DNA from: a virus
Lineage: Duplodnaviria > Caudoviricetes
Length of the DNA stretch: 64,000 nucleotides
Strand: one strand, 5' to 3'
Virus record (IMG/VR): IMGVR_UViG_3300024279_000008
Span: 1,772 to 65,771 of that record
Below the pieces are notes generated by a model. That model did not search any database. It saw only the letters and a program-made list of their open reading frames with translations, and was not told the DNA's origin. Positions 2,196-48,245 of the stretch are shown here, piece after piece. Both the position numbers and the translations under genes were made by a program. How positions within the stretch are numbered: position 1 is the stretch's first letter; every line of letters starts with the position of its first letter.

Positions 2196-2669
2196 TTGAC
2201 AGTCAATGACGGACTTATCGCGGCTCAAGAAGCCGCAGTGGAATTTGAACACATCAACATCATGGAGATCGACCCAACCTTCAAACCAATCAACGAAGGA
2301 TTCTACACCCTCCAGGTCAACAAACTGACCCCTAAGACTATTACCCCTTCGAAGGGTAAGAACCAAGGGAAGGCAGTTCTGGTCCTGAATGGTTCCTTCA
2401 CGGTGGTTGGGGATGATGCATTCTCGGGACGGAAGATCTGGAAGTCCTTTTGGGCCTCGAACCCAGTGGATCTGAAGGACCTCCGGCGGTTGGCCGATGC
2501 AACCGGTGTGACCCAAGATGCAGGTCAGACCCTCTCGGAGTACGCCCAGACGTTTGAGACTCTTAACCCCCCTGCGGAGTTTAAGGTGTTTCTCGCCACC
2601 CAGGCGGACTATCGGGACCCGACCCAGATGGTGAATGAGATTAAGTTCAATCAGGCCCAGCCGGTCTAG
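2196..2669 (+). CDS. single-stranded DNA-binding protein, DUF669-like
   Basis: AAGGAG RBS then TTG at 2196; PINEGFYTLQV and FSGRKIW patterns; follows the Sak4-like ATPase. Confidence 0.6.
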   Translation: MTVNDGLIAAQEAAVEFEHINIMEIDPTFKPINEGFYTLQVNKLTPKTITPSKGKNQGKAVLVLNGSFTVVGDDAFSGRKIWKSFWASNPVDLKDLRRLADATGVTQDAGQTLSEYAQTFETLNPPAEFKVFLATQADYRDPTQMVNEIKFNQAQPV

Positions 2670-2796
2670 GTCTAGGTCCATCCCTCATGGGGAGGGAGGA
2701 CCAACAGAGGGAGCGTGGCTCTCTCTGTGTGAGGAGAGTACTGAGGGAGGACGGGTGAAACGCCTGACTCCCTTTGCTCTCCAAGGAGCAATATCT

Positions 2797-2964
2797 ATGG
2801 AAGTCTCTTTTCAACAAGCCGTTAAGCTAGGATTAAGATGGCTGGAACAAGGGTGTGAAATTCCATATATAGATCCGGAGTACGGAGTAGTATTGAGACT
2901 AAACTCCTCGGTATTATCCCTCAGATTAAAAGATCGAAAGGCATGGTTTGAATGGAAACAGTAA
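2797..2964 (+). CDS. hypothetical protein
   Basis: AAGGAG RBS before ATG 2797. Confidence 0.5.
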   Translation: MEVSFQQAVKLGLRWLEQGCEIPYIDPEYGVVLRLNSSVLSLRLKDRKAWFEWKQ

Positions 2965-3164
2965 CCTTCCAAGCACAAATCGACTTAACCATCGGCCCGA
3001 ACTGGCCGGACCCATCCCCTCCCTGCACCCTAACCCCCAAGGACCTCCGATGCCTCCAGGAGTTATTCCAGGGGTTTGTCACAGTCCTAAGATGGTTTGG
3101 GTATGTTCGGAGTGATATGTACATCGACGAAAATTCCTGTGGAGGAGACGAGTTTACTAAATGA
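2952..3164 (+). CDS. hypothetical protein
   Basis: Overlap-coupled ORF in the operon. Confidence 0.45.
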   Translation: METVTFQAQIDLTIGPNWPDPSPPCTLTPKDLRCLQELFQGFVTVLRWFGYVRSDMYIDENSCGGDEFTK

Positions 3165-3358
3165 TACCTGTTCACAAAACCTGCTGGTTATGCTACGGTT
3201 CCAATGATGTCCAGAAGGAACTCCAAGATGCTGAGGGCCGATGTTATATATGTCATGGAACAGGAGTTCACACAGAATGGAGACTAGATGAAACGAGGAT
3301 GGGTGTTAGCGACGATACTAAGGAAGTTATTCCCAAAGACAATCAAAAGGATTGTTAA
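3161..3358 (+). CDS. small Zn-finger protein
   Basis: CWLC...CYICHGTG (DnaJ-like CxxCxGxG); ATGA overlap. Confidence 0.5.
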   Translation: MIPVHKTCWLCYGSNDVQKELQDAEGRCYICHGTGVHTEWRLDETRMGVSDDTKEVIPKDNQKDC

Positions 3359-29397: not shown

Positions 29398-30129
29398 TTA
29401 TGCTGAGGTAACATACACAATATGCTGCTCCGCAGGCGTGCCTGTGTAGCTCCATACTGTCTTCCATCCACCAAGGAAGTACCACGCTAGGCCCTGATCG
29501 CGGCCATAGTCAATGGAGACCTTCACTCGGAGTTCCTCGGGAACTGCGACGGCCTCGTAGACCGCATCAGCCCCAAAGAACACAGCAGCTCCATGGGTGG
29601 AGCCATTCCCGATGGTGTTGGATAGATATCCAGTTTCCTCTACGAAGCGGGTGTTGTAGTACTTCCCAATCTCCCCGTTGAAGATATTCTTCGCGAAGTC
29701 CACCGTGTACTTCGAGACATCCACCCAACCACCAGCAGCGGTATCTCCAAACATCCCAGAGAGAGCCGCAGTGGAAGCAATGCAGATGTAGGACTGACCA
29801 TCGAATTTCGGGATCAGTTTCTTCTTCATGAAGTCCACAACCGACCGGACATTCGCTCCGGTTAGATCGGCAGTAGCCACAGCAGTGGCAGTGCCATTGG
29901 TTGTGATGACGGTGTTGTTGGTGGCGGACATCACCGCGATGAACTCGGTATTAACATACTGAGCCCCCGCAGCAGATTCCAGGGCCTTGACCATATCATC
30001 TCGTAGGGATTGCTCCACTGCCGGTTCGATCATGATCTGACCTAGGGCTTCGAGCTTCCCGGTATAGGGGACCGAGTTGCCGTATTCTACGATCACGCCA
30101 GTACCCTGGCCGACCGTAAAGTTCGTTTG
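29398..30129 (-). CDS. major capsid protein (N4 gp56-like), exon 2
   Basis: QTNFTVGQGTGVIVEYGNSVPYTGKLE...GEIGKYYNTRFVE...DYGRDQGLAWY; joins in frame to exon 1 to give 317 aa. Confidence 0.9.
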   Translation of the reverse strand, partial: QTNFTVGQGTGVIVEYGNSVPYTGKLEALGQIMIEPAVEQSLRDDMVKALESAAGAQYVNTEFIAVMSATNNTVITTNGTATAVATADLTGANVRSVVDFMKKKLIPKFDGQSYICIASTAALSGMFGDTAAGGWVDVSKYTVDFAKNIFNGEIGKYYNTRFVEETGYLSNTIGNGSTHGAAVFFGADAVYEAVAVPEELRVKVSIDYGRDQGLAWYFLGGWKTVWSYTGTPAEQHIVYVTSA

Positions 30130-30870
30130 TATTTATGTTAACTTACTATCACTAGTAAGATCGGACTTTCTCATCATTCAGATGTCTGAAGGGAGGCGTA
30201 AAGTCTCTGAGGACTCACCAAAAGGTTTGTTTGCTTCACGAGAAAAATTAAGAATCGATGGATAATTATGAACCTCATCCCTAATTTTTTCGACTAGTTC
30301 CTTTATTCTTGGTTCTCCTTGAAGAGATACTCCATGAAATTTACAGGACTTATCCTGCCCAGCAGCAACTGCTAGACTCTCACGGTAGTCAACCAATTCT
30401 ATTGCTAATTCCGATCTTCGTCGTTTAGCAAATAAATATGGAATGACTTGCTCAAGAAGTTTCTTGACTCTTTGTTTCCCACCAATTGTAATGCAAACTC
30501 CAGGTTTTGACTTCTTTGGACTTTGAGGGGAGGAGATATAAAATCCAACTTCCAGCCTACAAAGAATTTCTGTTGTTCGCCTAATAATTAGTGGATGAGT
30601 ATTATAGATTGTAACTCTTACAGTTAAGTTATTGCATTCTTTCTGGTTTCTAAATCCAGCATAAATACATCCCTCACCATCTATAATAGCTCCAAGCCAA
30701 GCCAAATCGGTGTCTTTCCTGCGGGTTGACTCAGCTTCAGGATTATTACCAACCTGGGTACCTGAAAGACTCTTGAGTGATTCCTGCATATGGTCTCCTT
30801 TTACATGCCCCAAACGGGGAAATTAGTTTACTATCTGACTGTAGAATAGCACGCTATTTCCCAAATGTCC
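30130..30870 (-). mobile_element. group I intron (741 nt) in the major capsid gene
   Basis: IGS CGUUUG-GGGCAUG (30816-30804) pairs with the spliced junction CAUGCCU|CAAACG. P7 GAGACUU/AAGUCC; P9 CUUACUA-GUGA-UAGUAAG. Confidence 0.9.
30178..30789 (-). CDS. intron-encoded LAGLIDADG homing endonuclease
   Basis: LAWLGAIIDGEGCI motif; AAGGAG RBS before ATG 30789. Confidence 0.9.
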   Translation of the reverse strand: MQESLKSLSGTQVGNNPEAESTRRKDTDLAWLGAIIDGEGCIYAGFRNQKECNNLTVRVTIYNTHPLIIRRTTEILCRLEVGFYISSPQSPKKSKPGVCITIGGKQRVKKLLEQVIPYLFAKRRRSELAIELVDYRESLAVAAGQDKSCKFHGVSLQGEPRIKELVEKIRDEVHNYPSILNFSREANKPFGESSETLRLPSDI

Positions 30871-31092
30871 AGGCATGGTGTTCGTCTCAGCCAGGACTGT
30901 ACCTTGCGTGGAGACGTTACCTCGTTTATCGAATAGCCAAGTATCACCACGGTTCTTACCGACATTTTCCTTGACATCCACGAACTGTCTAAAGCGAAAC
31001 TGTGGTTGTGCCTGTGCACGTAACCGTTGGGTTAGATAAGGCTGTGAAAGGTAACCACCTAGGCTACCTGTTGAGTATTGCTGTCCTGGCAT
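30871..31092 (-). CDS. major capsid protein, exon 1
   Basis: AAGGAGG RBS; GGYLSQPYL...FRFRQFVD...GDT...LAETNTMP ends in U at the 5' splice site. Confidence 0.9.
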
Positions 31093-47769: not shown

Positions 47770-48245
47770 ATCCAGAATCCCCTTGGTGGCGAGCTCGGGA
47801 GAGTTTGCTGATTGATATCCCAACGGGGATCTTCGGACCTGGGTTCAATTCCCAGCACCTCCACCAAGCCATCGGAGCCAATGTAGCTTCTGGCATAAGG
47901 TTTAAGAAAAGTTCATCGTGACTTGGGATAGCTTCCCAGCGCCTGACCAGGATAAAAGGCGGTTTCGGTGGCTCGGTGGGGGTGTAACGGTTTCGACGGG
48001 GACCCACCGGTAAGGTAGAGTACCAGGGGCTAGCGAAAGCCGTCTCTGCGAAGCAGCAACAGGTAGCCGACTACCTGAGAGGAGCCCACGATGCGTGGGA
48101 GCCTCGACAATAGCGGAAAACCAACAACTGCCAATTCCATTGTCAGTAAAGTAACTCGCATTTGGGAACGGATCGTCGAAGCGATCAGCCCTGCGGGTTA
48201 TAGCCCTGCGTTCGCGTAGGGACGATGGGGGCGAAAAGCCCCCTC
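47770..48245 (+). ncRNA. ssrA: circularly permuted two-piece tmRNA (acceptor piece ends 47866; coding piece starts 47978)
   Basis: 3' TLD GGAC-CTGGG-TTCAATT-CCCAG-CACCTCC-ACCA lies upstream of 5' GGGGGTGTAACGGTTTCGACGGGG; G3:U70; tag ORF 48130-48219. Outer ends approximate. Confidence 0.9.

Follow-up and report, generated by a model that had tools for sequence, protein, structure and literature searches.

Can a group I intron whose last nucleotide is A, and not the usual terminal guanosine (omega-G), still be removed from an essential phage gene? The question is raised by the window, as we call the whole stretch of 64,000 nucleotides of viral DNA analysed here, which is taken from a record that is a complete viral genome and has terminal repeats. 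Its major capsid gene, of the N4-gp56 type, occupies positions 29398-31092 of the minus strand and is split into two exons by a group I intron. Omega-G is regarded as universally required for the second group I splicing step, and annotation pipelines delimit introns by it. The parts of the gene are as follows:

31092-30871, minus strand: capsid exon 1, 74 codons with the ATG at 31092, aligning with residues 1-74 of the 317-aa intronless homologs.
30870-30130, minus strand: group I intron of 741 nt, delimited by helices, covariation and exon alignment.
30129-29401, with the stop codon to 29398, minus strand: capsid exon 2, 243 codons plus stop, placed by homolog alignment.

Exon 1 ends in ...ACC AUG CCU and exon 2 begins with CAA ACG AAC UUU, the predicted ligated junction reading, over 18 nt, ACCATGCCT|CAAACGAAC. 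Joined, the exons give 74 + 243 = 317 aa, the same length as dozens of intronless homologs, and the insertion point falls between the codons for Pro74 and Gln75. Exon 2 as a query matched over 1400 relatives, and many of these are uninterrupted, 317 aa long, 80-93% identical and named N4-gp56 family major capsid protein; in the protein alignment the intronless homologs read ETNT[IMV]P|QTNF, gap-free, at the exon 1/exon 2 boundary, which bears out the junction (TMP|QTNF) and the restored 317-aa frame that an earlier note on this DNA had proposed. Exon 2 alone had no Pfam match; the 74.2 bits obtained with TIGR04387 (NCBIfam; cut-off 60) belong to P0003, an intronless homolog with 93% identity to exon 2, and not to the window's joined exons. 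An in-frame UAA lies 3 nt upstream of exon 2. Among the seven introns found at this site (described below) the first two exon 2 codons show synonymous variation only (CAA/CAG; ACG/ACA/ACU/ACC), and those codons are therefore exon. No second capsid gene was found in the window, where the capsid gene is single. Every one of the database entries for these capsid genes is called as fragments; intron or gene callers demanding a terminal G would mis-annotate such genes.

The N4-gp56-type capsid gene is also a hot spot of LAGLIDADG group I introns, as seen in relatives L002-L004 (e.g. L004:1310-1917), L405-L407, L094 and L220. At least three further insertion sites occur in these relatives: FVDV|KEA near residue 40, ..VP|xDYGR near residue 279, and the site in L094, which lies 19 nt upstream of the Pro|Gln site in a gene that apparently has a second intron too. 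All introns at other capsid sites that could be delimited end in G.

The structure of the intron was drawn by hand and then tested on an alignment of the window's copy with six further introns inserted at the same Pro|Gln site in other samples (L001, L125, L126, L127, L128 and L306), which were found through relatives of the endonuclease and through pattern scans; the seven share 63-75% nucleotide identity. Over 51 pairs, 95.8% of the cells were paired and 22 pairs had both sides changed, with 0 of 500 shuffles as good, and pairing fell to 34-44% in a control in which the partner strands were slid. Helices 3-8 (P3-P7 and P9, including the P3/P7 pseudoknot) were 88-100% paired, with double changes in 19 pairs. 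By its predicted fold and covariation the element is a group I intron, with these parts:

30870-30817, minus strand: P1-loop insertion of ~54 nt, placed after the 5' splice site and before the guide, a hairpin (GGGAAAU...AUUUCCC) whose counterpart in every relative varies in sequence.
30816-30804, minus strand: internal guide CGUUUG-GGGCAUG, of which CGUUUG (30816-30811) pairs with exon 2 to form P10 and GGGCAUG (30810-30804) with exon 1 to form P1; covaries with the exons.
30798-30793, minus strand: P3 5' strand GGAGAC, with three pairs changed on both sides.
30788-30720, minus strand: P4-P5 domain; P4 is UGCAGG (30788-30783) with CCCGCA (30725-30720), P5 is UUUCAGG (30767-30761) with CCUGAAG (30741-30735).
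30712-30707 with 30221-30216, minus strand: P6, 5' strand CACCGA and partner UUGGUG, 97.6% paired with one double change (L127).
30207-30201 with 30168-30163, minus strand: P7, G[A]GACUU with AAGUCC, 100% paired with covariation; the 5' strand lies inside the conserved element UCAGAGACU.
30197-30192, minus strand: P3 3' strand GCCUCC, covarying with the P3 5' strand.
30190-30177, minus strand: P8 hairpin (UUCAG, loop ACAU, CUGAA), seen by eye in all seven introns; sequence and length differ among relatives.
30176-30163, minus strand: J8/7 (UGAUGAGA) and the P7 3' strand AAGUCC (30168-30163), from alignment and covariation.
30162-30160, minus strand: J7/9, GAU, with A30161 and U30160 as the P9.0 5' strand.
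30159-30142, minus strand: P9, a 7-bp stem (CUUACUA/UAGUAAG) with a GNRA loop (GUGA), 100% paired with five double-changed pairs.
30141-30130, minus strand: intron 3' tail UUAACAUAAAUA, with A30132 and U30131 as the P9.0 3' strand and A30130 as omega.

All seven pairs of P5 have changed on both sides across the same-site introns. In P7 the guanosine-binding pair, G30205-C30164, sits next to the bulged A30206 and is G-C in 7/7 same-site introns (columns 686-737); both the helix and its normal binding pair had been described in the earlier note, and the covariation supports them. The structure model has no P2. Two A.C mismatches, one in P3 (columns 97-695) and one in P4 (columns 106-168), occur in the window and in none of the relatives. 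J8/7 is alike in introns ending in A and in G, save for one G peculiar to the window among them; we considered this G, in GAUGAGAAAG, as a possible defect and rejected it, as L309 and L294, also of this family, have a G there too, and it is thus family variation. The intron is poorer in G+C than the window (39.1% vs 52.6%). The reading frame of exon 1 continues into the P1-loop insertion and stops at UAA (30825-30823).

With Rfam RF00028 (Intron_gpI) there was no match at the gathering score of 50; a weak one of 24.1 bits (E=1e-3) aligned well in the P8-P9 part only and ended at the P9 hairpin (G30142). In the middle of the intron Rfam misaligns, missing the real 5' strand of P7, and its alignment was left out of the structure. 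This poor fit is explained by the overlap with the open reading frame and by the missing P2. That reading frame is:

30789-30178, minus strand: homing endonuclease gene, 203 aa, single-motif LAGLIDADG like I-CreI, I-MsoI and I-CvuI, with its body in the P6 loop.

The endonuclease contains the LAGLIDADG motif LAWLGAIIDGEG, and its profile matched I-MsoI (2e-11), I-CvuI (4e-9) and I-CreI (~5e-5) in PDB, while Pfam LAGLIDADG_3 gave 18 bits, below the cut-off of 22.5. The frame is intact in all seven same-site introns and may drive homing into intronless alleles. Gene and ribozyme share sequence at both ends (minus strand, 30707-30800 and 30177-30221): the start codon and first ~27 codons encode the 5' strands of P4-P6, the P4-P5 domain being encoded within the first 23 codons, and the last ~15 codons encode P6', P7, P3' and half of P8, in whose 3' strand the stop UGA (30180-30178) sits. 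The conserved C-terminal peptide FGESSETLRLP is in this way a protein reading of the ribozyme's catalytic core. The Shine-Dalgarno sequence AAGGAG (30800-30795) overlaps the 5' strand of P3, and pairing of it within P3 could limit translation of the endonuclease.

The 5' splice site and the exon junction are tied together by the guide. The 5' strand of P1 is CAUGCCU (30877-30871), the last 7 nt of exon 1, with U30871 as the splice-site U opposite G30810, and the 3' strand of P10 is CAAACG (30129-30124), the first 6 nt of exon 2, paired 6/6 in the window. The 13-nt complementarity of the guide to CAUGCCU|CAAACG, with the U:G wobble at the 5' site, was the starting observation of the earlier note and holds; a match of this length has a chance expectation of ~1e-5 in 741 nt. 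Across the seven introns the 7 pairs of P1 are 100% paired, two of them with compensatory double changes, and the pair at the splice site is U.G in 7/7. P10 is 85.7% paired, with four standard pair types at its sixth pair, and in 7/7 introns it abuts the U.G pair, the first base of exon 2 pairing with the adjoining guide base. The guide covaries with both exons in six independent relatives, and the window's lineage has its own unique compensatory double changes, two in P1 and one in P10. The guide-exon pairing is far beyond chance.

Base 30130 is T on the plus strand and hence A in the RNA, the intron ending in ...GUUAACAUAAAUA, and the family consensus tail is ...AAUG vs ...AAUA in the window. 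A further constraint on the position of omega comes from P9.0, a helix of two pairs for which the family shows covariation with every one of the four Watson-Crick combinations: N, the central base of J7/9 (G-N-U), has as its partner the nucleotide immediately preceding omega (A-U, C-G, G-C, U-A). This rule holds at junctions that have separate support from protein alignment, namely L405 and L406 (GGU, ..ACG|), L407 (GCU, ..AGG|), L128 (GUU, ..AAG|) and L001 (GAU, ..AUG|). In 23 other family members, N=A goes with an AUG tail in 15/19 and N=C with an AGG tail in 3/4; an automatic search for guide, P1 and P10 gave too much noise in A+T-rich sequence to settle omega in the wider family, and these introns served solely for the tail consensus and the P9.0 tally. 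With N=A, as in the window, the rule assigns A30132 and U30131 to the P9.0 pairing set and makes A30130 omega; where N=C and the tail is ..AGA|, as in L125 and L127, the G is part of P9.0 and omega is once more A. Three independent constraints, namely coding, P1/P10 and P9.0, agree on a predicted omega directly before exon 2, and the terminal A reported earlier at 30130 stands on all three.

The state of omega at the Pro|Gln site is not the same in all seven introns:

Window: tail UAAAUA, omega A.
L126: tail UAAAUA, omega A; another sample, 66% overall intron identity, identical 13-nt tail GUUAACAUAAAUA.
L125: tail UAAAGA, omega A.
L127: tail UAGAGA, omega A.
L128: tail UAAAG, omega G.
L001: tail CACAUG, omega G.
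L306: tail UAUUG, omega G.

A search for homologous introns with the same A, which had been suggested as a check, thus returned three among the six same-site relatives. The intron tree joins the window (A) to L001 (G) with a support of 0.996, and L127 (A) to L128 (G) with 0.958. The same interleaving of A and G is seen in a tree of the endonucleases that has omega-G introns from another capsid site as its root, and it takes no fewer than three changes between G and A, or recombination events, to account for it. Omega-A and omega-G introns are alike in the P7 strands, in the G-C binding pair and in the R element (UCAGAGACU). As judged from these sequences, omega-A is a recurrent natural state of this intron lineage, in which omega is either G or A. 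P10 runs from the junction for five or more uninterrupted pairs in each of the four omega-A introns; of the omega-G introns, L306 forms only 2/6 pairs and L128 5/6, its junction pair being a C.A mismatch. For an association of omega-A with an intact junction-proximal P10 this sample (n=7) is too small to lean on.

Further same-site introns were sought in several ways. An endonuclease query of viral contigs matched none, and a profile query gave, among the matches listed, only distant relatives (at most 39% identity), the patterns being too generic. Scans with the 3' pattern and the 5' junction pattern added only L306, other matches being due to chance, and an endonuclease profile search yielded no additional relatives above 51% identity. 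Relatives P0123, P0124 and P0010, available as protein without DNA, stand outside the same-site set.

The terminal A could be only apparent if the junction lay elsewhere, so that the intron ended in G: at G30142 after P9, at G30124 after CAAACG, or through a 5' cleavage one base off. We regard this as highly improbable. The Rfam alignment does stop at G30142, but a junction there would leave stop codons in all three frames ahead of the capsid frame, and one at G30124 would need Gly-His for the invariant Gln-Thr, and a G is missing from that position in L001, L125 and L126. In L125 and L127 the mRNA would be unchanged, and omega would be G, if the cut fell after CC with G|A CAR; however, the G of both is already used in P9.0, and the one-base shift would produce an omega-U in the window and in L126, convert the invariant U.G into C-G and break the first P10 pair. 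A sequencing or assembly error at 30130, one of the options named in the earlier note, would concern one base in a metagenomic assembly, but it is very unlikely and effectively excluded, given that L126, an independent contig from a different sample, has the same tail at 66% overall intron identity, and that L125 and L127 also end in A.

The earlier note had left a choice between splicing with omega-A, such an error and an inactivating change, and the best reading is the first: the window probably holds a natural, splicing-competent omega-A mobile group I intron with an I-CreI-type LAGLIDADG endonuclease, in the phage's only capsid gene. We infer splicing of the omega-A RNA, possibly slower or protein-aided, because the capsid gene is single, the endonuclease gene is intact and the compensatory changes are lineage-specific; this reading draws on just seven same-site introns, all metagenomic, and assumes the viability of each phage. 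In the Tetrahymena work of Michel et al. in 1989 and of Been and Perrotta in 1991, an omega-G to A change reportedly impairs exon ligation strongly unless the G-binding pair is changed too, a rule that counts against a functional omega-A here because the G-C pair is unchanged. The window's intron could instead be a splicing-defective or decaying copy, in which omega went from G to A and A.C mismatches arose in P3 and P4, within a non-viable or helper-dependent variant genome. We consider this rather unlikely. It agrees with the near universality of omega-G, with the G of the closest relative, L001, and with the restriction of both mismatches to the window, where they may mark early decay; but an A.C mismatch between G-C pairs is a mild defect, the window's lineage has compensatory changes of its own in P1 and P10, the genome is complete, has one capsid gene and was abundant enough to be assembled, and three other deeply diverged same-site omega-A introns have perfect core helices and intact endonuclease genes. 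An inactivating change is possible for the window's copy and unlikely in general, there being four deeply diverged omega-A introns (63-75% nt identity) with intact endonucleases and compensated helices. Tolerance of omega-A might also depend entirely on a protein that keeps the 3' splice site in position, either a host factor or the LAGLIDADG product of the intron itself in the role of a maturase, the RNA alone failing in the second step. Judged separately, this seems doubtful, and it overlaps with the preferred reading, since the intron is spliced in both. LAGLIDADG maturases are known, one of them in a bacterial intron (review PMC3984707), the omega-A intron ND5-717 is regarded as host-factor dependent (PMC3679873), and the endonuclease frame is intact in 7/7 introns, but the endonuclease sequences of omega-A and omega-G introns show no distinguishing feature.

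If the omega-A intron is indeed splicing-competent, the canonical P7 pocket would bind free guanosine, which would attack after U30871 in the U.G pair of P1. The 3' splice site would then be placed by the contiguous 6-bp P10 and the 2-bp P9.0, and not by base-specific docking of omega, and the 3'-OH of U30871 would attack the A30130-C30129 bond to give ...AUG CCU|CAA ACG... (TMP|QTNF). More tentatively, the second step in this lineage may proceed altogether without any dependence on the identity of the terminal base, P10 and P9.0 setting the 3' site by themselves beside a canonical pocket while omega drifts between G and A, an idea that we hold possible and do not favour.

A small family of mobile phage introns with matched omega-A and omega-G members and the same canonical G-binding site would offer natural swap controls. 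Such a matched set bears on exon ligation without omega-G and on P10 plus P9.0 as a substitute for omega docking, and also on help from the LAGLIDADG protein and on whether omega-A limits side reactions. If the second step is truly omega-independent, the family would be a natural, self-contained and experimentally tractable model of exon ligation that does not depend on omega; ND5-717, the sole natural exception that we found documented, is an organellar intron and hard to study.

The intron belongs to a wider family, marked by the 17-nt core motif TCCTCAGAGACTWYACG, which is present in at least 119 IMG/VR stretches (L006-L124), often several times per contig; the family is very common in environmental phages, yet it lies below the Rfam threshold. 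A motif scan found no second intron of this family in the window. In one 98.8-kb viral contig (L111, IMGVR_UViG_3300014204_000008; reverse strand, ~2460-3290 of the reversed locus) a single structural-looking gene contains two mini-introns of the same family that lack an endonuclease and are separated by 489 nt, with the same P4, Q, R, S and P9-GUUAACA elements and with P6 reduced to a small hairpin. They were considered as further cases of an intron not ending in G, having no AUG tail, but a frame-compatible G is available and they were not counted. Elsewhere in the window, positions 47830-48002 of the plus strand match the permuted (two-piece) tmRNA RF04321 with 59.8 bits vs a gathering score of 47.

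Among known systems, the engineered Tetrahymena omega G->A mutants share the 3'-terminal adenosine with the window's intron; ligation with A is said to have needed a change of the binding pair from G-C to A-U, whereas the window-site introns keep G-C in 7/7. For natural introns, a review of bacterial group I introns gives omega-G as the rule (PMC3984707), and a phage or bacterial intron with omega-A did not come up in our limited full-text literature search. The literature check for omega-A introns suggested in the earlier note did yield one precedent, the mitochondrial ND5-717 group I intron of hexacorals (sea anemone, mushroom coral), which ends in A and for which RNA-seq showed perfect exon ligation in vivo; a role of omega-A suggested by the authors is to prevent hydrolysis at the 3' site and circularization (PMC8146996, PMC6545197). 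The premise that the second step uses a 3'-terminal G consequently survives as a near-universal rule and not as a universal one (PMC8146996, PMC6545197). ND5-717 is, like the window's intron, a natural group I intron with A as its last nucleotide in an essential protein-coding gene. Unlike it, ND5-717 is obligatory, vertically inherited and organellar, lacks a homing endonuclease, contains whole genes in P8 and is considered host-factor dependent; the window's intron is compact and mobile, has a LAGLIDADG gene and shows either A or G as omega among close relatives, its splicing being deduced here and observed in ND5-717.

Phage capsid-gene group I introns are known and spliced, one of them with an I-CreI-like LAGLIDADG gene (PMC3706429). 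This is the intron of mycobacteriophage LittleE (Cluster J), which resembles the window's in its capsid-gene location and its I-CreI-related LAGLIDADG gene and is spliced in late expression, but in LittleE the endonuclease is on the opposite strand, and the capsid family and the host are others; the related intron in a tail gene of BAKA has the usual U and G ends (PMC3706429). With the introns of T4 td/nrdB, Twort and SPO1 (RF00028) the window's intron shares a P1 with U.G, a guide with P10, the P3-P9 core, P9.0 and a GNRA-capped P9, as well as UCAGAGACU and GAUA(A/U)AGUCC, a bulged A beside the G-C binding pair and a reading frame in the P6 loop. It differs from them in its terminal A, in having no P2 and no P7.1/P7.2, in the ~54-nt hairpin of the P1 loop, in an endonuclease whose start overlaps P3-P6 and whose end overlaps P6'-P8, and in its score of 24 bits vs the gathering score of 50. 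Omega-A itself and capsid-gene group I introns were thus already known; what is new here is the set of matched omega-A and omega-G relatives with an unchanged guanosine pocket.
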